DNA of 11,872 nt from a virus: the UHGV virus genome UHGV-1566471. One strand, written 5' to 3'. The notes beneath the pieces were generated by a model that was given only the letters and a program-made list of their open reading frames with translations, was not told the origin of the DNA and made no database searches. Within the stretch, counting starts at the first letter, position 1. Each line of letters starts with the position of its first letter. Of this stretch, positions 262 through 11,872 are shown piece by piece. The translations under genes and the position numbers were made by a program.

Positions 262-564
262 GTGCCTCCATTTCCTTTTTCTTCCTGTTCCTGCTGTTAT
301 TTTGATGAGTTGCTTGAACTACTTGGGAAGGCCGCTCAGAGTCGTACGGAAAACTTCCTTAACCGTAAGTTGTATGCAACCGTAGATGACAGGCCTGCGG
401 ATGATCCTGATGGGCTTGTGATATCTGATGATGTGAAGCTGGCGCTCCTGCTACTTGTCAGCCATTTCTACGAAAACCGCTCAACGGTTACAGACGTTGA
501 GAAAATGGAGTTGCCAATGAGCTTTAACTGGTTGGTTGCTCCTTATCGCCTTATACCACTATGA
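262..564 (+). CDS. Phage gp6-like head-tail connector protein, probably 5'-truncated or disrupted (recognisable part starts about nt 304)
   Basis: C-terminal 85 aa (DELLELLGKAAQ...LALLLLVSHFYENRSTV...LVAPYRLIPL) fit the gp6-like connector pattern. The first 14 codons (PPFPFSSCSCCYF) are read from the pyrimidine-rich upstream region of the minus-strand gene and lack the usual N-terminal motif. In-frame starts are only GTG 262 or TTG 310, neither with a convincing RBS. Stop overlaps the next start (ATGA at 561-564). Confidence 0.55.
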   Translation: MPPFPFSSCSCCYFDELLELLGKAAQSRTENFLNRKLYATVDDRPADDPDGLVISDDVKLALLLLVSHFYENRSTVTDVEKMELPMSFNWLVAPYRLIPL

Positions 565-971
565 AAATTCGTCAGGCGCAGACCAGCGCAACCTACATTC
601 TGCCTGACCCAGGCGAGCTGAATAAACGCGTCCTGATCCGCCAGCGGGTGGATATGCCCGCGGATAACTTTGGCGTGGAGCCTCAATACCCGGTTACGTT
701 CCGGACATGGGCGAAGGTTATCCAGACCAGTGCCACCACCTGGCAGGAAACCGCGCAGACCGGAGATGCCATCACCCATTACATCACCATTCGTTACCGC
801 CGGGGGATCACCGCTGATTATGAGGTGGTCTGCGGTGACAGTGTGTACCGGGTGAAACGTCAGCGCGATCTGAACGGGGCGCGGCGCTTTCTGCTGCTGG
901 AGTGTACGGAGCTGGGCGAATGTAGGCAGAGTCACGGAGGCAACAATGACGACTTCCTTTTTGCACGTTGA
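561..971 (+). CDS. Phage head closure / head-tail adaptor protein
   Basis: 136-aa ORF, ATG overlapping the upstream stop (ATGA), position directly after the gp6-like connector; translation consistent with head-tail joining family proteins. Confidence 0.75.
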   Translation: MKIRQAQTSATYILPDPGELNKRVLIRQRVDMPADNFGVEPQYPVTFRTWAKVIQTSATTWQETAQTGDAITHYITIRYRRGITADYEVVCGDSVYRVKRQRDLNGARRFLLLECTELGECRQSHGGNNDDFLFAR

Positions 972-1452
972 TTTTCAGCAGCCCGCGGAGATGCGCTTTA
1001 ACCGCGCCCGTGTCCGGCGGGCGTTTGTCACGATTGGTCAGCGTCATATGCGTGATGCCCGTCGGCTGGTGATGCGCCGTGCACGGTCGGCACCGGGTGA
1101 AAACCCCGGTTATCAGACCGGACGCCTGGCTCGTTCGATTGGTTACATGGTACCCAGAGCCAGTAAACATCGCCCTGGTTTTATGGCACGTATAGCCCCT
1201 AACCAGCGTAATGGAGAGGGAAACCGCCGTATCAACGGTGATTTTTATCCGGCTTTTTTGTTCTATGGCGTGAGGCGAGGGGCAAAGCGTCGTCGCAGCC
1301 ATCATCGTGGTGCATCCGGTGGCAGCGGCTGGCGACTGGCTCCACGTAATAACTTTATGGTGGAAACGCTTGAAAAGAACCGCAGCTGGACACGCTATTT
1401 TCTGGCGCGGGAATTGCGTAAATCACTGAAGCCGGAGCGACGACACAGATGA
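946..1452 (+). CDS. HK97 gp10-family phage protein (tail completion / neck)
   Basis: 168-aa basic protein; GGAGG 8 nt upstream of ATG 946; motif LARSIGYMV...ARIAPN...YPAFLFYG resembles the HK97 gp10 family; overlaps upstream gene by 26 nt. The long antisense ORF 808..1305 is R-rich and judged spurious. Confidence 0.75.
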   Translation: MTTSFLHVDFQQPAEMRFNRARVRRAFVTIGQRHMRDARRLVMRRARSAPGENPGYQTGRLARSIGYMVPRASKHRPGFMARIAPNQRNGEGNRRINGDFYPAFLFYGVRRGAKRRRSHHRGASGGSGWRLAPRNNFMVETLEKNRSWTRYFLARELRKSLKPERRHR

Positions 1453-2009
1453 AACTGACGCCTGTTATTGCTGCGCTGCGTGCCCGCTGCCCGTATTTTG
1501 AAAACCGGGTGGCAGGCGCGGCACAGTTCAAAAATCTGCCGGAGGTCGGAAAGCTGAGACTCCCGGCGGCGTATGTGGTACCGGGTGATGACTCTCCGGG
1601 AGAAAACAAAAGCCAGACCGACTACTGGCAGGAGCTGAAAGAGGGTTTCTCCGTGGTTGTCATACTGAGTAACGGGCGTGATGAGCGCGGTCAGTTTGCC
1701 TCGTATGATGTGGTGGACGATGTCCGGCAGATGCTCTTTAAGGCTCTGCTGGGCTGGAACCCGGAAGCGTGCGGTAACCCGATTACCTATGACGGCGGCA
1801 CGCTGCTGGATCTGAATCGTCATGAGCTGATTTATCAGTTCGATTTTTCGGTCATCAGCGAGCTGACCGAAGACGATACCCGCCAGCAGGATGACCTGAA
1901 CAGTCTGGATGAACTGCGAACGCTGGCGATTGATGTTGATTATCTCGATCCCGGTAACGGGCCTGACGGCGATATCGAACATCACACCGAAATAACCCTT
2001 CCTTCCTGA
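1449..2009 (+). CDS. Mu gp37-like (DUF1834-type) virion morphogenesis protein
   Basis: 186-aa acidic protein MKLTPVIAALRARCPYFENRVAGAAQFKNL...; ATGA start/stop overlap with upstream gene; sits immediately upstream of the DUF2635-sheath-tube block as in Mu-like tail modules. Confidence 0.7.
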   Translation: MKLTPVIAALRARCPYFENRVAGAAQFKNLPEVGKLRLPAAYVVPGDDSPGENKSQTDYWQELKEGFSVVVILSNGRDERGQFASYDVVDDVRQMLFKALLGWNPEACGNPITYDGGTLLDLNRHELIYQFDFSVISELTEDDTRQQDDLNSLDELRTLAIDVDYLDPGNGPDGDIEHHTEITLPS

Positions 2010-2017
2010 GGATCCTC

Positions 2018-2188
2018 ATGTTTGTGAAACCTGTTAAAGGGCGGTCAGTGCCTGACCCTGCCCGCGGCGACCTTTTGCCCGCCGAAGGGCGAAATGTTGA
2101 CGAGAACAACTACTGGCTGCGCCGTGAAGCAGCGGGTGATATCCGGCGCGTGAATAAAAAGGTGAATACCGATGACGATAAGCTTTAA
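2018..2188 (+). CDS. Small Mu gp38-like protein (DUF2635-type), 56 aa
   Basis: Not in the ORF track (below 60 aa). ATG 2018 preceded by GAGGA; translation MFVKPVKGRSVPDPARGDLLPAEGRNVDENNYWLRREAAGDIRRVNKKVNTDDDKL; overlaps the sheath start by 17 nt; conserved position just upstream of the sheath gene. Confidence 0.6.
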   Translation: MFVKPVKGRSVPDPARGDLLPAEGRNVDENNYWLRREAAGDIRRVNKKVNTDDDKL

Positions 2189-3668
2189 CACCATTCCGTC
2201 GAATACGCTGGTTCCGTTGTTTTATGCGGAAATGGATAACCAGGCGGCGAATACTGCACAGGACAGCGGAGCATCGTTGCTGATTGGTCACGCCAATAAC
2301 GGTGCAGAGATTGTTGCCAACAGTCTGGTGCTGATGCCGTCGGCAGACTATGCACGCCAGATTTGTGGTGCGGGAAGTCAGCTGGCGCGTATGGTCGAGG
2401 CTTATCGCCAGACCGACCCGTTTGGCGAGCTGTATGTGATTGCCGTTCCGGAAGCCGCAGGCGCGGCGGCAACGGTTACTCTGACGGTGACCGGGGCGGC
2501 AACCGAAACCGGCACGGTGAATGTGTATGTGGGACATACCCGCGTGCAGGCACCGGTGACCAACGGCGATAACGTCGCGACGATTGCCGGCAGTATCCAG
2601 GATGCCATCAATGCCGTTCCGGCCCTGCCGTTTACGGCCTCATCTTCGGCTGGCGTGGTCACACTGACCGCGCGTCATAAGGGACTTTGCGGGAATGAAA
2701 TTCCTGTCAGCCTCAATTACTACGGCTTTGGTGGGGGCGAAGTGCTGCCAGCGGGTGTACAGATTGCTGTGGCGACGGGTACCGCCGGAACGGGCGCTCC
2801 TGTTCTCACCGGTGCGGTGGCTGCAATGGCGGATGAGCCGTTTGATTATATCGGCCTGCCGTTCAACGACACGGCCTCCGTTAACACGCTGGTGACCGAG
2901 ATGAACGATACCAGCGGTCGCTGGAGCTATGCGCGTCAGCTGTATGGTCATGTGTATACGTCAAAGACCGGTACGCTGTCAGAACTGGTGACCGCAGGTG
3001 ACCAGTTTAACCAGCAGCACATTACCCTGGCGGGGTACGAAAAAGAAACCCAGACACCTGCCGACGAGCTGGCGGCAAGCCGTACCGCCCGCGCAGCGGT
3101 GTTTATCCGCAACGATCCGGCACGTCCCACGCAGACCGGTGAGCTGGTGGGTATGCTGCCTGCGCCGAAGGGGAAACGGTTCACGATGACCGAGCAGCAG
3201 ACCCTGCTGTCTCATGGCGTGGCAACGGCGTATGTCGAAAGCGGGGTACTGCGCATTCAGCGTGATGTCACCACGTACAGGAAAAATGCTTACGGGGTTG
3301 CGGATAACAGCTACCTCGACAGCGAGACGCTGCATACCAGCGCGTATGTGCTGCGCAAACTGAAATCCGTCATTACCAGTAAGTACGGGCGTCACAAGCT
3401 TGCCAGTGACGGTACCCGCTTTGGTCCCGGTCAGGCGATTGTCACCCCGGCGGTGATCAAAGGGGAACTGCTGGCAACCTACCGTCAGCTTGAGCGTGCG
3501 GGGATCGTGGAAAACTACGAACTGTTTAAGCAGTACCTGGTTGTGGAGCGTGATGCCAGCGATCCGAACCGCCTGAACACGCTGTTCCCGCCTGACTATG
3601 TTAACCAGCTGCGTGTCTTTGCCGTGGTTAACCAGTTCCGTCTTCAGTATTCAGAGGAGTCCGCATAA
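2172..3668 (+). CDS. Contractile tail sheath protein (Mu gpL-like)
   Basis: 498-aa ORF, N-terminus MTISFNTIPSNTLVPLFYAEMDN typical of Mu-like sheath proteins; followed by the tube gene with TAATG overlap. Confidence 0.9.
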   Translation: MTISFNTIPSNTLVPLFYAEMDNQAANTAQDSGASLLIGHANNGAEIVANSLVLMPSADYARQICGAGSQLARMVEAYRQTDPFGELYVIAVPEAAGAAATVTLTVTGAATETGTVNVYVGHTRVQAPVTNGDNVATIAGSIQDAINAVPALPFTASSSAGVVTLTARHKGLCGNEIPVSLNYYGFGGGEVLPAGVQIAVATGTAGTGAPVLTGAVAAMADEPFDYIGLPFNDTASVNTLVTEMNDTSGRWSYARQLYGHVYTSKTGTLSELVTAGDQFNQQHITLAGYEKETQTPADELAASRTARAAVFIRNDPARPTQTGELVGMLPAPKGKRFTMTEQQTLLSHGVATAYVESGVLRIQRDVTTYRKNAYGVADNSYLDSETLHTSAYVLRKLKSVITSKYGRHKLASDGTRFGPGQAIVTPAVIKGELLATYRQLERAGIVENYELFKQYLVVERDASDPNRLNTLFPPDYVNQLRVFAVVNQFRLQYSEESA

Positions 3669-4024
3669 TGGCCCGTATCGGGGGAACCTGTTATTTCAAA
3701 ATTGACGGTCAGCAGCTATCGCTGACCGGCGGCATTGAGGTGCCCATGAACAGGACGGTCAATGATGACATCATCGGCCTGGACGGTTCAGTGGACCGCA
3801 AGGAAACTCACCGTGCGCCTTATGTCAAAGGGACCTTCAAGGTGCCGAAGAATTTTCCGGTGAACAAAATCACCTCGTCTGATGAGATGACAATCACTGC
3901 CGAGCTGGCGAACGGTCAGGTCTATGTACTGTCGTCTGCCTGGCTGCACGGCGAAGCGAACCATAATGCCGAAGAAGGCACGGTCGATCTTGAGTTCCAC
4001 GGTGAAGAAGGGGATTACCAGTAA
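3668..4024 (+). CDS. Tail tube protein (Mu gpM-like)
   Basis: 118-aa ORF immediately after the sheath; GAGGAG upstream; TAATG overlap at both ends; size and position match tube proteins of contractile tails. Confidence 0.85.
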   Translation: MARIGGTCYFKIDGQQLSLTGGIEVPMNRTVNDDIIGLDGSVDRKETHRAPYVKGTFKVPKNFPVNKITSSDEMTITAELANGQVYVLSSAWLHGEANHNAEEGTVDLEFHGEEGDYQ

Positions 4025-4293
4025 TGAAAGAGCTTGAGTTAAAGAAACCGATTACTGCTCATGGCGAGACACTCTCCGTACTGGAGTTTGATGAACCCAC
4101 CGGGAAGGATGTCCGCGAGCTGGGGTATCCCTACCAGATGAATCAGGATGAGTCAGTCAGACTTCTGGCGCATGTGGTGTCGAAATACATTGTGCGGCTG
4201 GCGAAAGTGCCGCAAAGCTCTGTCGACCAGATGTCTCCGGCAGACCTGAATGCAGCGGCGTGGCTTGTGGCTGGTTTTTTCCTCCAGGCCTGA
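4024..4293 (+). CDS. Tail assembly chaperone, short (in-frame) product
   Basis: 89-aa ORF between tube and tape measure genes; its 3' end overlaps a second ORF in the -1 frame, the conserved two-ORF arrangement of tail chaperones. Confidence 0.8.
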   Translation: MKELELKKPITAHGETLSVLEFDEPTGKDVRELGYPYQMNQDESVRLLAHVVSKYIVRLAKVPQSSVDQMSPADLNAAAWLVAGFFLQA

Positions 4294-4442
4294 CGGCTGA
4301 ATACCTCACTGATCGCTTCTTTGACTGCGCCAGCTACTGGCGCATTAATCCTTTCGAATTGCTGAATATGCCGATCAGTGAAATTCCCTTACTGGTCAGT
4401 CAGGCAAACAGGATAGAGCAGGAGAAACGCACACATGGCTGA
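4024..4442 (+). CDS. Tail assembly chaperone, long product by programmed -1 ribosomal frameshift at T TTT TTC (4275-4281)
   Basis: Slippery heptamer T-TTT-TTC in X-XXY-YYZ register of the upstream frame (codons GGT TTT TTC); the -1 frame stays open from 4260 to the stop at 4440-4442, which overlaps the tape measure start at 4435. Frameshifting is predicted, not shown. Confidence 0.55.
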
Positions 4443-6270
4443 ATTTGAGCTTAAGGCGTTGATCACCGGTGTCGACAGGCTTTCTCCCGCGCTGTCGAAA
4501 ATGCAAAAGAAAATCCGGGGATTTAAACGCCAGGCGGAAGAAGCGTCACAGGGTGGGCTGGCGCTTGGTGGCGGACTGGCAGCGGGTCTGACGCTTTCCC
4601 TGAAATCTTATGCCGATCAGGAAAACGCCGCCACCGGGCTGAAAGTCGCCATGATGGATGCGAACGGCGAGGTTGGAAAGAGCTTTCAGGACATCAATAA
4701 ACTGGCTATTGGCCTGGGTAACCAGCTACCCGGTACAACGGCTGATTTCCAGAACATGATGCAGATGCTGGTGCGTCAGGGGATCCCGGCAGAAAACATT
4801 CTGGGTGGTGTGGGTAAAGCGACAGCTTATCTTGCGGTACAACTGAAAAAAACACCGGAAGCGGCTGCTGAGTTTGCTGCAAAGATGCAGGATGCTACCG
4901 GAACGGCGTCAGAAGACATGATGGGGCTGTTCGACACTATCCAGAAGGCGTTTTATCTGGGCGTTGACGATACCAACATGTTGTCCTTCTTCACTAAAAC
5001 CAGTTCTGTTCTGAAGATGGTGAACAAGGACGGTCTTCAGGCTGCACAGAGCCTTGCCCCCATCAGCGTCATGATGGATCAGATGGGGATGAACGGGGAG
5101 TCGGCAGGTAATGCCCTGCGAAAAGTTATCCAGTCCGGATTAAGCGTTAAGAAAATCAGGGACGTCAATAAAGTCATGGCCCGCCAGAAACTCGGGGTAC
5201 AGCTCGATTTTACTGACGGCAAAGGGAGTTTTGGCGGTCTTGATAACATGTTTAAACAACTGGCAAAGCTGCGAAAACTGACCGACGTTAAGCGAACAGG
5301 TGTACTTAAGGCAATATTTGGTGATGATGCCGAAACCCTTCAGGTGGTAAATGCTCTGATCGATAAAGGAAAGGATGGTTACGATCAGATCCAGCAGAAG
5401 ATGAATAAACAGGCCAGTCTGAATAAACGTGTTCAGGCCCAGCTTGGTACGCTGTCCAACCTGTGGGAGGCAATGACGGGGACCGCAACTAACGGCCTTG
5501 CGGCTATTGGCGGCGCATTTTCTGGTGACGCCAAAAATATCACGCAATGGCTGGGGGAGTTAGGGGAAAAATTCACGAAGTTTGCGGATGAAAATCCCCG
5601 GGTTATTCGCGGCGTCGTCGGGCTTGCTGCCGGTCTTGCGATTCTGAAACTGGGATTGATGGGCGTGGGCAGTGCCATCAGTATCGTCAGCAGGATCATG
5701 TCGATGACGCCGATTGGCATGATTGCGACGGCGATTGCCCTGGCTGCGGGATTAATTATCACTAACTGGGATGTTGTCGGACCTTATTTTAAGAAACTCT
5801 GGGAAACCATTAGTCCTTATTTTGAGGCTGGCTGGGAACTTCTGAAGAAGGTTTTTGCCTGGTCGCCGCTGGGGATGGTGATCAATAACTGGGGACCGGT
5901 TGTTAAGTGGTTTCAGGATATGTGGGATAAGCTGAAGCCGATTATTGAATGGTTTACCGACAGTTCCGGTGACACGGTCGATGCCATTAACTCGGCGCAG
6001 TGGGGCGCGGGTGCTTATGATGCTTATGGGACGGGATTCCCGGCGCGGGGATACACACCTTATCCGGCGATGGATCCGGCTCAGGCAAACAACGCCTCCG
6101 ATGCCACAGGCCCGAATCCCTTCATGATTAACAAAGCTTCTGCGCCAAAAGTTGATGGTGAGATCAAGGTCTCTTTTGTGAATTCGCCTCCGGGTATGCG
6201 GGTTATGGAAACGCGATCCAGCGGTTTTGATGTCAGCCATGATGTTGGCTATACGCGCTTTGGCAGGTAA
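4435..6270 (+). CDS. Tail tape measure protein
   Basis: 611-aa ORF directly after the chaperone pair; Gly/Ala-rich, helix-prone N-terminal part and a hydrophobic segment (VVGLAAGLAILKLGLMGVGSAISIV...IATAIALAAGLIITNW) typical of tape measure proteins. Confidence 0.9.
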   Translation: MAEFELKALITGVDRLSPALSKMQKKIRGFKRQAEEASQGGLALGGGLAAGLTLSLKSYADQENAATGLKVAMMDANGEVGKSFQDINKLAIGLGNQLPGTTADFQNMMQMLVRQGIPAENILGGVGKATAYLAVQLKKTPEAAAEFAAKMQDATGTASEDMMGLFDTIQKAFYLGVDDTNMLSFFTKTSSVLKMVNKDGLQAAQSLAPISVMMDQMGMNGESAGNALRKVIQSGLSVKKIRDVNKVMARQKLGVQLDFTDGKGSFGGLDNMFKQLAKLRKLTDVKRTGVLKAIFGDDAETLQVVNALIDKGKDGYDQIQQKMNKQASLNKRVQAQLGTLSNLWEAMTGTATNGLAAIGGAFSGDAKNITQWLGELGEKFTKFADENPRVIRGVVGLAAGLAILKLGLMGVGSAISIVSRIMSMTPIGMIATAIALAAGLIITNWDVVGPYFKKLWETISPYFEAGWELLKKVFAWSPLGMVINNWGPVVKWFQDMWDKLKPIIEWFTDSSGDTVDAINSAQWGAGAYDAYGTGFPARGYTPYPAMDPAQANNASDATGPNPFMINKASAPKVDGEIKVSFVNSPPGMRVMETRSSGFDVSHDVGYTRFGR

Positions 6271-6293
6271 TGAAAAATTAATCTGTTAATGAG

Positions 6294-6316
6294 TCCCACT
6301 CCGGTGGGATTTTTTA
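6294..6316 (+). terminator. Possible weak intrinsic terminator or attenuator between tape measure and DNA circularization genes
   Basis: Hairpin TCCCAC (6294-6299), loop TCCG, GTGGGA (6304-6309), followed by a run of six T (6310-6315). Stem is only 6 bp, so at most partial termination. Confidence 0.3.
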
Positions 6317-6330
6317 TGTACGGAGTTTAT

Positions 6331-7659
6331 ATGACGTGGAAAGACAGACTTCAGGACGCGTCATTTCGCGGTGTGCCGTTTAAGGTTGAAGAAGAAAGTG
6401 CGGGAACCGGTCGCCGTGTGGAAACGCACGAATACCCGAACCGCGACAAACCCTATACCGAAGACCTGGGGAAAATCACTTTCCGCCCGTCCATCACGGC
6501 TTATGTGGTGGGAGATGACTGCTTTGACCAGCGCGATCGCCTGATTGACGCGCTGAATAAACCCGGTCCTGGCACGCTTGTCCATCCGACTTACGGTGAG
6601 CTGAAAGCCTGTGTTGACGGGGAAGTTCGGGTCAGCACATCGAAGAGTGAAGGGCGTATTGTCCGCTTTGACCTGAAGTTTGTCGAAGCGGGAGAACTCT
6701 CTTACCCCACATCAGGTGCGGCGACGGCGCAGACGCTGATGTCATCCTGTTCTGCACTGGATGACTGCATCAGTGATAGCTTCAGTGGTTTCAGTATCGA
6801 TGGCGTGGCAGATTTTGTGCAGAACGACGTCGTCGGTAATGCCAGCACAATGCTTGGGTATGTTTCTGATGCGATGAAAGTGGTGGATTTTGCCGTATCG
6901 GATGCCGCCAGGCTGTTGCAGGGGGATATCTCGGTACTTCTGCCGCCGCCATCGTCAGGCAAAAATTTCGTTGAGCAGGTGCAGAAAATGTGGCGTACCG
7001 GGAAACGCCTTTATGGTAACGCCAGCGACCTGGTCACCATGATCAAAACGCTTTCCGGTGTCAGCCTCGGCAGCGATCTGCAACCGCGCGGCGTCTGGAA
7101 AACGGACAGTAAAACCACCGCCACGGCGACGCAGCAGCGTAACGTGGTTGCCAGCACCCTTCGTACGACCGCAATCAGCGAAGCGGCGTATGCCGTCACC
7201 CGATTGCCTGCGCCAACAACTTCCGCGGTGATGCAGAATGCCGCAGTGGGGCAGGCAACAACACCCGCGCAGAGCACCGGCTGGCCTTCTGTCACGCATC
7301 CGGCACTGAACAATGCACCGGCGGTGAAAAACACGGTTGACCTGCCAACGTGGGAAGAACTGACCGACATTCGCGACACACTGAATACGGCAATTGATAA
7401 GGAGTTGTCCCGTACAACCAGTGATGCGCTGTTTCTGGCGCTGCGCCGGGTGAAAGCAGATCTGAATGCGGATATCAACACGCGCCTTGAACAGTCTGCT
7501 CGGATCATTCAGCGCACGCCGGATGAGGTTTTACCCGCGCTGGTGCTGGCGGCGGCCTGGTTTGATAACGCGGCGCGTGACGCGGACATTATCCGGCGTA
7601 ATGCCATTACGCATCCCGGCTTTGTGCCGGTGATCCCTCTGAAGGTGCCAGTGCAATGA
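6331..7659 (+). CDS. DNA circularization protein (Mu gpN / gp43-like)
   Basis: N-terminus MTWKDRLQDASFRGVPFKVEEE matches the DNA circulation protein N-terminal motif. ATG 6331 preferred (GGAG 4 nt upstream); the ORF track start 6289 and ATG 6316 are in-frame alternatives. Stop overlaps the next start (ATGA 7656-7659). Confidence 0.85.
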   Translation: MTWKDRLQDASFRGVPFKVEEESAGTGRRVETHEYPNRDKPYTEDLGKITFRPSITAYVVGDDCFDQRDRLIDALNKPGPGTLVHPTYGELKACVDGEVRVSTSKSEGRIVRFDLKFVEAGELSYPTSGAATAQTLMSSCSALDDCISDSFSGFSIDGVADFVQNDVVGNASTMLGYVSDAMKVVDFAVSDAARLLQGDISVLLPPPSSGKNFVEQVQKMWRTGKRLYGNASDLVTMIKTLSGVSLGSDLQPRGVWKTDSKTTATATQQRNVVASTLRTTAISEAAYAVTRLPAPTTSAVMQNAAVGQATTPAQSTGWPSVTHPALNNAPAVKNTVDLPTWEELTDIRDTLNTAIDKELSRTTSDALFLALRRVKADLNADINTRLEQSARIIQRTPDEVLPALVLAAAWFDNAARDADIIRRNAITHPGFVPVIPLKVPVQ

Positions 7660-8735
7660 ACGACAATGTCACGCTACGGGTAAATGGCCGGGAGTGGAAT
7701 GGCTGGACATCGGTGCGCATCGGTGCCGGTATTGAACGGCTGGCGCGGGATTTCAGTGTGGAGATCACTCGCCAGTGGCCGGGAGATGAGGGTATCACCA
7801 CGCTTCAGCCGCGCATTAAAAACGGTTCAAAAGTGGAAGTGCTGATTGGTGATGAGCTGGTGATCACCGGCTGGGTGGAGGCGACTCCCGTTCGTTACGA
7901 TGCCCGTTCGGTCAGCACCGGTATTGCCGGACGTAGTCTGACGGCTGACCTGATTGACTGTGCAGCCGAACCGACACAGTTTAACGGACGCTCGCTGGTG
8001 CAGATTGCGCAGGCGCTTGCTGCGCCTTTCGGCATTGAGGTGGTGAACAACGGTGCACCGTCGGATGTTATTCCTGATGTCCAGCCTGATCACGGTGAAA
8101 CGGTGATCGAGGTGATCAACAAAATACTCGGTCAGCAGCAGGCGCTGGCTTACGACGACCCGCACGGCAGGCTGGTGATTGGCGGTATTGGCTCAACGCG
8201 GGCACATACCGCGCTGGTACTTGGGGAAAACATCCTTTCCTGTGATACGGAGAAGAGTGTTCGGGAGCGTTTTTCAGTTTACCAGGTGGCGGGGCAGCGT
8301 GCCGGAAACGACGATGATTTCGGTGAGGCCACCACCACCGCGCTGCGGGCCCGCACAGAGGACGCATTTATTGCCCGTTACCGTCCGATGTATATCAGGC
8401 AGACAGGGCAGGCCACGGGGGCAGGTTGTATTGCGCGTGCTGACTTTGAAGCCCGACAACGGGCGGCGCGGACGGATGAAACCACCTATGTGGTGCAGGG
8501 CTGGCGACAGGGTAACGGTACGCTGTGGCAGCCCAACCAGCGGGTGATTGTCTTCGATCCGGTCTGTGGTTTCGACAATACCGAACTGCTTGTCTCGGAA
8601 GTCACGTTTACTCAGGACCAGAACGGCACCCTGACGGAAATCCGTGTCGGCCCACCTGATGCTTATCTTCCTGAACCCGAAGCCCCCGGCGCGCGGAAAA
8701 AGAAAAAAGCCAGAGTACAGGAGGACCCGTTCTGA
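7656..8735 (+). CDS. Baseplate hub / tail protein (Mu gpP / gp44-like)
   Basis: 359-aa ORF, N-terminus MNDNVTLRVNGREWNGWTSVRIG typical of Mu P-like proteins; lysine-rich C-terminus; TGATG overlap with next gene. Confidence 0.85.
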   Translation: MNDNVTLRVNGREWNGWTSVRIGAGIERLARDFSVEITRQWPGDEGITTLQPRIKNGSKVEVLIGDELVITGWVEATPVRYDARSVSTGIAGRSLTADLIDCAAEPTQFNGRSLVQIAQALAAPFGIEVVNNGAPSDVIPDVQPDHGETVIEVINKILGQQQALAYDDPHGRLVIGGIGSTRAHTALVLGENILSCDTEKSVRERFSVYQVAGQRAGNDDDFGEATTTALRARTEDAFIARYRPMYIRQTGQATGAGCIARADFEARQRAARTDETTYVVQGWRQGNGTLWQPNQRVIVFDPVCGFDNTELLVSEVTFTQDQNGTLTEIRVGPPDAYLPEPEAPGARKKKKARVQEDPF

Positions 8736-9283
8736 TGAGGACGATTGAAGCCATGCAGCGACAACTCCTCGGCCTGATTGGGCGGGCCGTGGTGAAAAGC
8801 ATCAGTGCCGCCACGAAATGTCAGACCGTGGATGTGTCCCTGATTGCCGGTGAACCCAAAGCCGGGGTTGAACATCTTGAACCCTACGGTTTTACCGCAA
8901 GGGCAAACAGCGGTGCGGAAGCGGTGGTGTTGTTTCCGGATGGCGACCGTTCTCATGCAGTGGTTGTTACGGTGTCGGACCGGCGCTACCGCCTGAAAGG
9001 GCTGCAGACGGGTGAGGTGGCTGTCTATGACGATCAGGGGCAGTCTGTGACGCTGACCCGGGAGGGGATCGTGGTGGACGGTGCAGGTAAAACGATCACG
9101 TTTCGCAATGCGCCCAGAGCACGTTTTGAAATGGACCTGGAAGTGACAGGACAGGTGAAAGACCTGTGCGACTCCGGCGGCACCACCATGTCAGCGATGC
9201 GGCTTGCCTATAACGGGCATCGTCACAGAGAGAACGGTCAGGGCAGTAACACCGACAAACCTGATAAAGCGATGGAGGCATGA
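8735..9283 (+). CDS. Baseplate assembly protein V / central spike (Mu gp45-like)
   Basis: 182-aa ORF in the position of Mu gp45; translation consistent with gpV-like spike proteins. Confidence 0.8.
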   Translation: MRTIEAMQRQLLGLIGRAVVKSISAATKCQTVDVSLIAGEPKAGVEHLEPYGFTARANSGAEAVVLFPDGDRSHAVVVTVSDRRYRLKGLQTGEVAVYDDQGQSVTLTREGIVVDGAGKTITFRNAPRARFEMDLEVTGQVKDLCDSGGTTMSAMRLAYNGHRHRENGQGSNTDKPDKAMEA

Positions 9284-9708
9284 TGGAACTGTGGCTGACG
9301 GTGAACGGTAAACGCACCTGCGCCAGCGCACAGCTGGATCCGCTGACCCGCGCCGTGGTGATTTCCCTGTTTACCTGGCGGCGGGCGGAGCCTGATGACA
9401 ACGCCGACGTCCCGATGGGATGGTGGGGGGATACCTGGCCTGCGGTACAGAATGACCGTTACGGCTCCCGACTGTGGCTGCTTCAGCGCAGCAAACTGAC
9501 CAATCAGCTGGTGCAGACGGTAAGGGGGTATATCCGCGAATGCCTGCAATGGATGATTGATGACGGCGTGGTGTCCCGTATTGATCTGGATATCCGCCGC
9601 ACCGGGATTAATGAACTGGGTAACAGTATCACTCTCTGGCGTCGTGACGGACCGGTAATGATTTCTTTTGATGATCTGTGGAGTGCGATAACGCATGGCG
9701 GACAGTGA
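9280..9708 (+). CDS. Phage GP46-family baseplate protein (Mu gp46-like)
   Basis: 142-aa ORF, ATGA overlap with upstream gene; conserved position between the gpV-like and J-like genes. Confidence 0.8.
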   Translation: MMELWLTVNGKRTCASAQLDPLTRAVVISLFTWRRAEPDDNADVPMGWWGDTWPAVQNDRYGSRLWLLQRSKLTNQLVQTVRGYIRECLQWMIDDGVVSRIDLDIRRTGINELGNSITLWRRDGPVMISFDDLWSAITHGGQ

Positions 9709-10753
9709 ATTTCAGCGCCCGACGCTGGCAGAAAATATCAGTATGCTCCGTAACGATTTATTCGCCAGGCTGGACGTCAGCGACACGCTCCGGCGCATGG
9801 ATGAAGACGTGCGGGCAAAGGTGTATGCGGCGGCGCTGCATACGGTTTACGGTTACATCGATTATCTGGCAATGAACATGCTGCCTGACCTGTGCGATGA
9901 GTCCTGGCTGGCGCGACATGCTGCGATGAAACGGTGTCCGCGCAAGGGGGCCACGGCTGCCAGCGGGTATATGCGCTGGGAAGGTGTCAGCGATGGCCTG
10001 AAGGTGACCGCCGGGAGTGTTATTCAGCGCGATGACCTGGTTCAGTACACGGCAACTGCCGATGCAACCAGCACCGGTGGTGTCCTGAGCGTGCCGATCG
10101 CCTGCTCAAGTGCAGGCGCGGTCGGTAACGCTGACGACGGTACGTCATTAATCCTGGTCACGCCGGTTAATGGTCTGCCGTCTTCCGGCGAGGCAGATAC
10201 CCTGACAGGTGGATTTGATATTGAAGAGCTGGAAACGTGGCGCGCCCGCGTCATTGAGCGGTATTACTGGACGCCTCAGGGCGGGGCTGACGGGGACTAT
10301 GTCGTCTGGGCTAAAGAAGTGCCCGGCATTACCCGCGCATGGACATACCGACACTGGATGGGAACGGGGACTGTCGGTGTGATGATAGCCAGCAGTGACC
10401 TGATTAATCCCATTCCGGAAGAATCAACGGAAACGGCAGCAAGACAACATATCGGGCCACTGGCCCCGGTGGCAGGCTCTGATTTGTATGTATTCAGGCC
10501 GGTGGCACATACGGTGGATTTTCATATCCGCGTGACGCCGGACACACCAGAAATACGGGCTGCCATTACCGCGGAGTTGCGTTCGTTCCTGCTGCGTGAT
10601 GGTTATCCGCAGGGAGAACTGAAGGTATCGCGTATCAGTGAAGCGATTTCCGGTGCGAACGGGGAATACAGCCATCAGTTGCTTGCACCGGCAGACAATA
10701 TCTCCATTGCAAAAAATGAACTGGCGGTACTGGGGACGATTTCATGGACGTGA
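9695..10753 (+). CDS. Baseplate J-like wedge protein (Mu gp47-like)
   Basis: 352-aa ORF; size and order (gp46 then J-like then gp48-like then fiber) match Mu-like baseplates and the e14 jayE-ymfQ-stfP arrangement. Confidence 0.85.
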
Positions 10754-11328
10754 CAAACGATGATTACATCCGTCTGTTGTCGGCACTGTTGCCCCCCGGT
10801 CCGGCGTGGTCAGCCAGCGATCCGGCGATTGCCGGTGCGGCACCGTCATTAACCCGCGTTCATCAGCGTGCGGATGCCCTGATGCGGGAGCTGGATCCGC
10901 GCACCACCACTGAACTGATAAACCGCTGGGAGCGTCTGTGCGGTCTGCCGGATGAATGTATTCCGGCGGGAACGCAGACCCTTCGCCAGCGTCAGCAACG
11001 GCTGGATGCGAAGGTTAACCTGGCGGGCGGCATCAACGAGAATTTTTATCTTGCACAGCTTGCTGCCCTGGGCAGACCAGACGCCACCATCACGCGATAC
11101 GACAAAAGCACGTTCACCTGCTCATCGGTCTGTACTGACGCGGTGAATGCGCCGGAATGGCGGTATTACTGGCAGGTCAACATGCCAGCCGCCACAAACA
11201 CCACCTGGATGACATGTGGCGATCCCTGTGATTCCGCGCTGCGTATCTGGGGCGACACCGTTGTCGAATGTGTGCTTAACAAACTCTGCCCGTCGCATAC
11301 CAACGTAATTTTTAAATATCCGGAGTAA
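10744..11328 (+). CDS. Mu gp48-like / YmfQ-like tail protein (DUF2313-type)
   Basis: 194-aa ORF overlapping the J-like gene by 10 nt; Cys-containing C-terminus; sits immediately upstream of the tail fiber gene as in e14 and Mu-like prophages. Confidence 0.8.
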
Positions 11329-11331
11329 TCC

Positions 11332-11872
11332 ATGCATCGTATAGACACGAAAACCGCGCAGAAGGATAAGTTCGGCGCGGGTAAAAACGGTTTTACCCGT
11401 GGTAACCCCCAGACCGGCACGCCTGCCACCGATCTGGATGATGACTACTTTGATATGTTGCAGGAAGAACTCTGCAGCGTGGTGGAGGCATCCGGTGCCA
11501 GCCTGGAGAAGGGGCGGCATGACCAGCTGCTTACCGCGCTTCGTGCACTGCTGTTAAGCCGCAAGAATCCGTTTGGCGATATCAAATCGGATGGCACGGT
11601 GAAAACGGCTCTCGAAAACCTTGGTTTGGGAGAAGCGGCAAAAAGGAATGTGGGGACAGAGACAAACCAAATACCAGACATGGCTTCGTTTGCTTCTGGT
11701 CCGGGTTGGATGAAATTTCCATCTGGTAAAATTATTCAGTATGGCTATCATACATCCAGTAACAGTAGTTCAATCATTATTAATTTCCCTATTCCTTTCC
11801 CGACTCAATGTTACGGAGTCACAGGGGGTGGAACAGATGCCAGTGCAGCAAATATTGTAGGTTGCCAGGTCA
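11332..11872 (+). CDS. Tail fiber protein, 5' part (conserved N-terminal domain plus start of AT-rich variable receptor-binding region); runs off the right edge
   Basis: GGAG 6 nt upstream of ATG 11332; N-terminus [48 protein letters not shown] is the conserved N-terminus of StfP/StfE/Mu S-type side tail fibers; open to the window edge (180 codons). Not in the ORF track because no stop is present. Confidence 0.85.
11609..11634. other. Candidate 26-bp crossover site for a Gin/Cin/Pin/Hin-family serine DNA invertase (gix/pix-like), inside the tail fiber gene
   Basis: CTCTCGAAAACC-TT-GGTTTGGGAGAA: imperfect dyad (9 of 12 half-site positions symmetric) around a 2-bp core, with the AAACC/GGTTT signature of hix/gix/cix sites. 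It falls at the codons for ALENLGLGE, where constant and variable fiber parts join in invertible fiber systems, and coincides with a drop in GC downstream. Confidence 0.55.

Follow-up and report, generated by a model that had tools for sequence, protein, structure and literature searches.

An AT-rich receptor-binding tip joined at a pixL crossover site in the tail fibre of an SfV/e14-type prophage: a very likely fixed member of the Din-type fibre cassette pool

Described fibre cassettes and the tail module of the window

Exchange of tail-fibre tips at a DNA-invertase site is a well-known phage route to a change of host range. For Din invertases to act, one supercoiled molecule has to carry both two crossover sites and an enhancer bound by Fis. 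In the Mu G segment, where S/U and S'/U' alternate, two gix sites and the invertase Gin make up an active switch. In the e14 prophage of Escherichia coli K-12 the corresponding element is the 1797-bp invertible P segment, carrying stfP (ycfK)-tfaP and tfaE-stfE between the inverted sites pixL and pixR, with pinE adjacent. The site pixL, at which the Pin invertase of e14 crosses over, has been tabulated together with the hix, gix, cix and mix sites (PMC3241671), and the P-segment repeats and their inversion by PinE, PinQ and PinR have been described (PMC12529663). A chimeric e14 StfE2 protein with anti-phage activity has also been reported. In the Shigella flexneri serotype-converting phage SfV, grouped here with SfI, SfII and SfIV, the fibre genes are orf21 (short tail fibre) and orf22 (assembly protein), and recognition of the O-antigen by the tail governs the host specificity of SfI-type phages (PMC3636060). 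The foot of R-pyocin fibres is a trimeric LPS-binding jellyroll (PMC6363177).

The DNA analyzed here, referred to as the window, is a stretch of 11,872 nucleotides of a viral genome. By its open reading frames and their Pfam matches it comes from a temperate myovirus of the Mu-like tail type and covers head completion and the tail: a sheath gene (2172-3668) followed by the tube gene, a tape measure gene (4435-6270), a DNA-circulation gene (6289-7659) and baseplate genes (7656-11328), in the same tail and baseplate gene order as in Mu. The last baseplate gene, on the plus strand at 10744..11328 and directly upstream of the fibre gene, encodes a wedge protein of the YmfQ/Mu gp48 family; it is annotated as YmfQ in E. 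coli relatives and matches Pfam Phage_Mu_Gp48 in a 99%-identical copy. With a GC of 0.578 and a third-position GC (GC3) of 0.64, it closes the GC-rich conserved tail module. SfV is 97.6% identical to the window from 304 to 11682, and SfI, SfII, SKA5 and 689R6 are about as close, with collinear, near-identical sheath, tube, tape measure and baseplate genes followed by ymfQ and the fibre gene. On this similarity the window is assigned to an E. coli prophage of the SfV/e14 type (Mu-like), of which it is the tail module. Part of it is matched by 1,914 of the 5,426 complete E. coli genomes, in which the last open reading frame is annotated as a "gp53-like domain-containing protein".

Three further features of the module were noted. 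Positions 1-303 have a GC of only 0.36 and contain a minus-strand open reading frame, running from an ATG at 257 off the window start, for the N-terminal 80 aa of a single-chain FGAM synthase (TIGR01857, E 6.6e-18). The likeness to SfV and SKA5 sets in abruptly at 304, within the head-tail adaptor gene, so that this end of the window looks either like a join of chimeric origin or like a truncated prophage next to unrelated DNA. Just 5' of the tape measure gene, an 89-aa Phage_TAC_7 reading frame (4024-4293) overlaps one of 60 aa (4260-4442), an arrangement usual for a frameshifted tail-assembly-chaperone pair. The longest reading frame of the DNA-circulation protein has 456 aa, but the gene calls give 442 aa for near-identical copies and for an E. 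coli relative and 447 aa for SfV, so its true start is probably a downstream ATG.

Composition break and crossover site within the fibre gene

The tail-fibre gene begins at ATG 11332 (plus strand, first residues MHRID) and runs off the window end at 11872, with 180 of its 213 codons inside. The full protein (P0001) has 213 aa and agrees with the window at all 180 residues present there (100% identity). Six contigs (L005-L010), 99.0% identical to the window over 10.5 kb, run through the whole fibre gene; the last 33 codons, the chaperone gene that follows and the missing downstream partner site described below were read from these 99%-identical copies.

The initial annotation had described a fibre with a GC-rich, conserved N-terminus to about aa 100, followed from about 11640 by an AT-rich part of other origin. 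Its sequence, coordinates and peptide (aa 128-167 of this reading frame) were correct, and the composition drop was borne out. The GC of 11640-11872 is 0.425 compared with a mean of 0.561 (sd 0.040, z = -3.4) for all 233-nt windows in 501-11400, the lowest of which reached 0.433, so that none was as low. A maximum-likelihood scan of a 99%-identical copy holding the whole fibre gene placed the GC change point at exactly 11640 of the window (log-likelihood ratio 33.5; 2-lnL interval 11538-11727), and the change point for GC3 fell after codon 96. Codon usage is likewise non-uniform along the gene: the GC at the first, second and third codon positions is 0.61/0.42/0.61 in codons 1-101 and 0.44/0.53/0.34 in codons 102-180, while every other tail gene of the window has a GC3 between 0.57 and 0.66. 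Because GC3 decreases while second-position GC increases, the shift lies at synonymous sites and does not stem from the Ser, Asn and Ile content of the protein. The low GC persists through the rest of the fibre gene and through the chaperone gene (0.42) in the near-identical copies.

The break in similarity falls at the same place. The constant N-terminal part (11332..11608, plus strand, aa 1-92, GC3 0.61) is 94-100% identical in nucleotides across 80 viral contigs as well as SfV, e14 and 689R6. It is related to residues 42-113 of Mu S (32% identity over 72 aa, pairwise BLASTP E 2e-8) and to the Mu S structure 5YVQ (E 0.013-0.028), and it is predicted by AlphaFold2 (AF2) to be helical (helices at 34-96, pLDDT about 80); these likenesses suggest that it is the baseplate-attachment region. 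Three relatives whose C-termini differ keep 87-100% identity to the window in each 30-nt bin up to 11631 and then fall to 17-37%, the random level; in the bin 11602-11631, SfV, the e14-like relative L001 and 689R6 are all 100% identical to the window. Past this point 689R6 is abruptly random, at 11635/11636, and SfV and L001 decay across the next 100 nt, a gradual loss explained by a 36-aa neck that is common to many alleles. In line with the initial annotation, conservation among the closest relatives does not reach into the C-terminal part: SfV, SfI, SfII, e14 and 689R6 are 96-98% identical over about 11 kb, and their identity stops between 11635 and 11744.

At this junction lies a 26-bp crossover site of the Din invertase family, 11609..11634, with its core dinucleotide at 11621-11622. 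Its sequence is CTCTCGAAAACCTTGGTTTGGGAGAA, and the reverse complement, TTCTCCCAAACCAAGGTTTTCGAGAG, that is TTCTCCCAAACC AA GGTTTTCGAGAG, is identical at 26 of 26 positions to pixL as listed in Table 3 of PMC3241671; it follows the dix-type pattern TTC...AAACC NN GGTTT...GAA. The match is unique in the window, and shuffled sequences give an expectation of 0.00. Of the inverted repeats flanking the K-12 P segment, the left arm consists of the same 21 nt, and the site is also identical to the left P-segment repeat arm of the e14-like relative. It is read in frame as codons 93-101 (ALENLGLGE), at the constant/variable junction where similarity and GC both break. In e14, pixL occupies the same codon position, the ymfQ gene and the constant part are about 95% identical to those of the window, and GC3 drops past the site from 0.63 to 0.35. 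In an alignment of 12 DNA sequences the 26-bp site was the sole block common to all left and right flanks.

Mu shows the same design: gixL sits within S in the same frame, where it encodes FIQNLGLQE (xNLGLxE in general form), and the cassette beyond it again consists of a tip and a chaperone. We considered gixL as the homologous codon and rejected it, since gixL is at aa 169 of the 504-aa fibre and the site studied here aligns with Mu residues at about aa 105-113; the comparison with Mu thus supports the mechanism and the reading frame only, not positional homology. The Mu tip is moreover unrelated, and the GC3 drop is small there (0.49 to 0.42).

In phage vB_EcoM-689R6 (L004, 15876-18157) an SfV-type constant part is joined exactly at pixL to a tip of the e14 stfE type, giving a fibre of 171 aa, and the 12-sequence alignment likewise resolved 689R6 into an SfV-type left flank and an e14 stfE-type right flank. 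Beyond its fibre gene lie mcrA-like and DNA-invertase genes in opposite orientation, a layout that differs from K-12 e14 and suggests, from the arrangement of these genes, a rearrangement at the site. Some alleles that carry the same tip as the window have a degenerate right half-site (GGTTTGAAATCT, LGLKS), indicating that the site is not strictly needed to keep the tip.

The tip domain and its occurrence in other phages

Beyond the site the cassette opens with the conserved neck (11635..11742, plus strand, aa 102-137), which is already AT-rich and still recognizable across many alleles. Its identity to the e14-like relative is 57-90% per 30-nt bin, and to E. coli genomes 76% by blastn. In 94 aligned sequences the invariant columns of the neck were A102, A103, V107, G108, T109, N112, Q113, P115, D116, M117, F120, G123, W126, P130, I134 and Q136. 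The hypervariable core of the receptor-binding foot domain follows from about aa 138 (11743..11872, plus strand), and the domain extends 33 codons past the window. Over the whole tip the residues invariant across the 94 alleles are NQ.PDM, G..W, I.Q.G, IPF, S207 and G212, in keeping with the scattered shared motifs that had been noticed at the outset.

A Pfam match to Gp53-like_C (PF21882) covers aa 128-173 (11713-11850; E 1.7e-11, 44.9 bits against a gathering cut-off of 24.9). It is shortened by the window end, and full-length relatives span profile positions 1-83 of 84. Among PDB sequences the tip matched the R2-pyocin fibre (6CT8, 6CL6) and gp53 of Acinetobacter phage AP22 (4MTM) with E values of 1e-4 to 9e-4; all PDB sequence matches, including R1 pyocin 6CXB and the short tail fibre 9ZD7, ranged from 1e-5 to 2e-2. 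The pyocin feet and AP22 gp53 share with the tip a G-W...Q-G...FPIPFP core (E about 1e-4), although their identity to it is only 22-23% and they belong to long-shafted fibres, whereas the protein of the window has 213 aa and a short helical N-terminal part.

An AF2 model built on the 94-sequence alignment had a mean pLDDT of 62, with about 80 in the helical N-terminal part and 55-74 in a beta domain of eight strands; a first run with a 14-sequence alignment reached a pLDDT of 47 and was discarded. The best Foldseek matches of the model were 6CT8, 4MTM and 6CL6 (E about 1e-5, between 2e-5 and 6e-5, probability 1.0; rmsd 3.2 A over 94 columns for 4MTM), followed by the H-type lectins SLL-2 and Helix pomatia agglutinin. 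Since the model has a pLDDT of 55-74 in this region and its confidence is modest, the fold matches are taken as supportive only. The same set of relatives has been listed for the R-pyocin foot (PMC6363177). The initial annotation had called the AT-rich part a receptor-binding module, and its assignment to the Gp53-like_C family as a lectin-type foot, a homologue of the R-pyocin foot that binds LPS, agrees with this. The domain family, the pyocin foot and the O-antigen data for SfI together point to a trimeric foot that binds a surface polysaccharide and folds with the help of the TAP chaperone as the likely mechanism, and by this analogy the tip may be a determinant of host range.

The tip recurs in other genera at 84-85% aa identity, as "phage tail proteins" of 115-129 aa in Salmonella and Citrobacter. 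In a P2-like Salmonella prophage (L014) it forms a silent, promoterless inverted cassette with its own TAP gene, adjoining a Resolvase/HTH_7 gene; the inverted repeats, TTTTCATAAACCTTGGTTTGGGAGAAG and ...CCCAAACCAAGGTTT..., lie 1818 bp apart, one of them within the active fibre gene. In a Citrobacter locus (L013) both the N-terminus to which the same tip is fused and the baseplate preceding it are different. The fibre of Salmonella phage PT1, 449 aa long and with a tail-collar N-domain, has the tip at its C-terminal end, with a nucleotide identity of 81% in the tip and 70% over tip and TAP gene. Megablast of the tip and chaperone against the 5,426 complete E. coli genomes gave no match, the hypervariable core had no DNA match in the same genomes, and an exact 41-mer of the variable part was not found in the species-representative genome collection. 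E. coli seldom carries the window's tip, the nearest copies of which occur in prophages of Salmonella, Citrobacter and Enterobacter. As a protein query against a word-based index the 110-aa tip alone returned 26 candidates, and a profile of seven alleles reached 870.

The tip is therefore found, at 81-85% identity, with three N-termini or baseplates that are unrelated, which supports the earlier proposal of a horizontally exchanged module of different origin. Because all alleles share one domain family and the 36-aa neck, "different origin" has to be read as another allele of a shared cassette pool rather than as another fold. Beyond that proposal, the present analysis places the break exactly at pixL, gives the mobile unit as tip plus chaperone, recognizes the common domain family and neck, and finds that low GC is common to most alleles.

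Fixed and invertible forms behind one constant part

To the right of the fibre gene the six near-identical copies all have the same order: the fibre gene, a single 143-aa Caudo_TAP chaperone gene (E 8e-30), an Acyl_transf_3 gene on the opposite strand, dinI and host genes. A Gp53-like_C tip followed by a Caudo_TAP gene is also the arrangement of e14, which, unlike the window's lineage, has in addition a second inverted site 1797 bp away, a second tip and chaperone in inverse orientation, and pinE; the tip allele of the window is unrelated in DNA to that of e14 beyond the neck. With a search that allowed up to 3 mismatches, and that would detect pixR, we found no second pix site in the window or in 20-kb near-identical loci, 10 kb on either side, and only the single site in the whole SfV genome. 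An inverted second site is present in the relatives L001, L011 and L014. No serine invertase gene (Resolvase plus HTH_7) was called in L005-L010, either in the 10 kb downstream or in the upstream tail module, and the whole SfV genome has none. Nor do the near-identical copies contain an alternative promoterless inverse tip with its chaperone, the single TAP gene being followed by the acyltransferase gene. The status of the site as an orphan refers to the window, the near-identical loci and the SfV genome.

SfV thus resembles the window in its single orphan pixL within the fibre gene, its want of an invertase and an O-antigen-modification module after fibre and chaperone, at the prophage end. 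It differs in its tip allele (216 aa, with similarity stopping at about 11682), in its chaperone and in having gtrABV downstream. The Acyl_transf_3 gene of the copies (L005 11125-12240, about 480 bp past the window end, GC 0.32) stands directly after the fibre chaperone on the opposite strand, in the place of gtrA-gtrB-gtrV of SfV. Lying beside the receptor-binding cassette, it is a candidate gene for an O-antigen acetyltransferase and thus for lysogenic conversion.

A diversity-generating retroelement was also considered as the source of variation and was rejected: among the called genes of the near-identical copies there was no reverse transcriptase, and a search for a template repeat in L005 (9900-13300) gave only chance matches of 12-20 nt to the variable region.

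To place this locus among others with the same constant part, we surveyed the 80 IMG/VR viral contigs (L017-L096) that encode it at 94-100% identity to the window. The pixL site was intact (26/26) in 51 of the 80 loci. By a crude key they carried about 46 variable C-terminal alleles, from 194 to more than 300 aa long, and the window's allele was found in none of them. In 31 loci an inverted partner site, mostly an exact pixR, lay 1.5-1.95 kb downstream, and 28 of these 31 also encoded a Pin (PinE) homologue; the strict partner-site pattern missed partners in 15 loci that have a Pin homologue. Neither partner nor Pin was present in 25 of the 80, counting loci with at least 2.5 kb of downstream sequence, as in the window's lineage. 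In 62 of 79 loci GC decreased after the site relative to the constant part (means of 0.51 and 0.56), with the window's value at the low extreme. In e14 stfP and stfE, SfV, L001, L014 and PT1 the GC3 of tips and chaperones was 0.31-0.45 (0.52 for the active L014 tip) and that of constant parts 0.59-0.66. The drop in most loci and in all named relatives indicates that low GC is a property of the whole cassette pool, of which the window's allele is an extreme case.

Many of these loci have, after the same 101-aa constant part, much longer Gly-rich tips (at least 300 aa, for example GGGGGGCQAISSNETFFGAGGGAG) in place of Gp53-like feet, some of them with site variants such as CTCTTCAAAACCTTGGTTTGGGAGAT.

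Taken as a whole, these observations make it very likely that the AT-rich tip is a real, horizontally exchanged receptor-binding cassette and a fixed, invertase-less member of the Din-type fibre cassette pool. Codons 1-92, the constant part, go with the GC-rich tail operon and would anchor the fibre to the baseplate, and codons 93-101 are written over pixL, a crossover site for serine invertases of the Pin/Gin/Cin/Hin type. Everything past the site, namely the AT-rich remainder of the fibre gene and the Caudo_TAP chaperone gene beyond the window, would form the mobile cassette, drawn from a large pool common to enterobacterial myoviruses. In e14, Mu and many close relatives, paired cassettes between inverted sites beside an invertase gene are flipped to pick the tip and switch host range. 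In the window's lineage, as in SfV, one cassette with one site and no invertase would leave the tip fixed and the site a relic or a passive junction. The Gp53-like_C tip, resembling H-type lectins, would be folded by its chaperone into a trimer whose variable loops bind LPS or O-antigen and so set the adsorption specificity.

We infer the trimeric state, the type of receptor and the exchange by recombination at or around the site from these comparisons. A break at a 26-bp block kept by every allele is also what homologous recombination would produce, so the position of the break does not in itself demonstrate a role of an invertase in the exchange. The cassette may have been exchanged by an invertase or by ordinary homologous recombination at the conserved block, the sequence being compatible with both.

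The orphan site could instead be used in trans, with PinE, PinQ or PinR of other cryptic prophages recombining it with distant pix sites to give new or chimeric tips. PinQ, PinR and PinE all invert the e14 P segment and so act outside their own element (PMC12529663); the site is intact at 26/26 here in spite of the lack of a linked invertase, as it is in 51 of the 80 surveyed loci, and in 689R6 the SfV-type constant part meets the e14 stfE-type tip exactly at the site. On the other hand, the site also encodes the conserved LENLGLGE, so that protein constraint or recent ancestry may account for its conservation, and the need for two sites and a Fis-bound enhancer on the same molecule is at odds with a neighbourhood that has no enhancer-bearing invertase gene. 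No rearranged junctions at the site were seen among the contigs examined. Nothing in direct support of use in trans was found, and we regard it as improbable. If it were true, a prophage that lacks a switch could capture new tips, or the host could make chimeric anti-phage fibre proteins.

It is more improbable still that the AT-rich part is one of two tips flipped at this locus by a Pin-type invertase, that is, an active, phase-variable segment. The perfect pixL, the 31 loci of the survey with a partner site, 28 of them with a Pin homologue, and the e14-like relative, which is 97% identical over the tail genes and has a full 1.9-kb segment, would all fit such a switch, but the six near-identical copies have neither a second cassette nor an invertase, no second site lies within 10 kb on either side, and the whole genome of SfV, the closest phage with a sequence, has a single site and lacks an invertase.

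Divergence in place, with no exchange, would attribute the drop to the amino-acid content or to the constraint of a fast-evolving receptor-binding domain, and the Ser-, Asn- and Ile-rich tip, together with the one domain family and neck shared by the alleles, could be read in that way. It has very little probability, being contradicted by the opposite movement of second-position (0.42 to 0.53) and third-position GC (0.61 to 0.34), by flanks that stay 96-100% identical while the tip is at random level, which divergence in place cannot give, by the same tip at 81-85% behind unrelated N-termini in other genera, and by a chaperone gene that is also low in GC.

An assembly chimera of two prophage fibre genes sharing site and neck, joined at about 11640, can practically be dismissed in spite of the chimeric look of the left window end and of drafts that sometimes break in the fibre gene, since independent NCBI, ENA and Logan assemblies have the identical 213-aa protein on at least 24 contigs, flanked left and right by the same genes (in the index, 50 blocks of the collection contain it). 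In one E. coli draft assembly the fibre gene comes in two parts (P0019 and P0130), each at a contig end, with the break at about aa 137, where the neck stops; this is likely due to several prophages per genome that share the constant part and the neck and so break short-read assembly.

A fixed cassette from the shared pool is thus the reading that we retain. It belongs to the long-known Din-invertase fibre cassettes and mosaic tail fibres and leaves the current understanding of how such modules move unchanged; the allele itself is uncharacterized, although already present in databases. What is added here is the exact junction, pixL, the exchange unit of tip plus chaperone, the occurrence of invertible and fixed forms behind one constant part, and the domain family of the tip. 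For annotation and for phage engineering, the exchangeable host-range module of SfV/e14-type fibres starts after pixL, at position 11635 of the window, and the unit to swap is the tip together with its chaperone.
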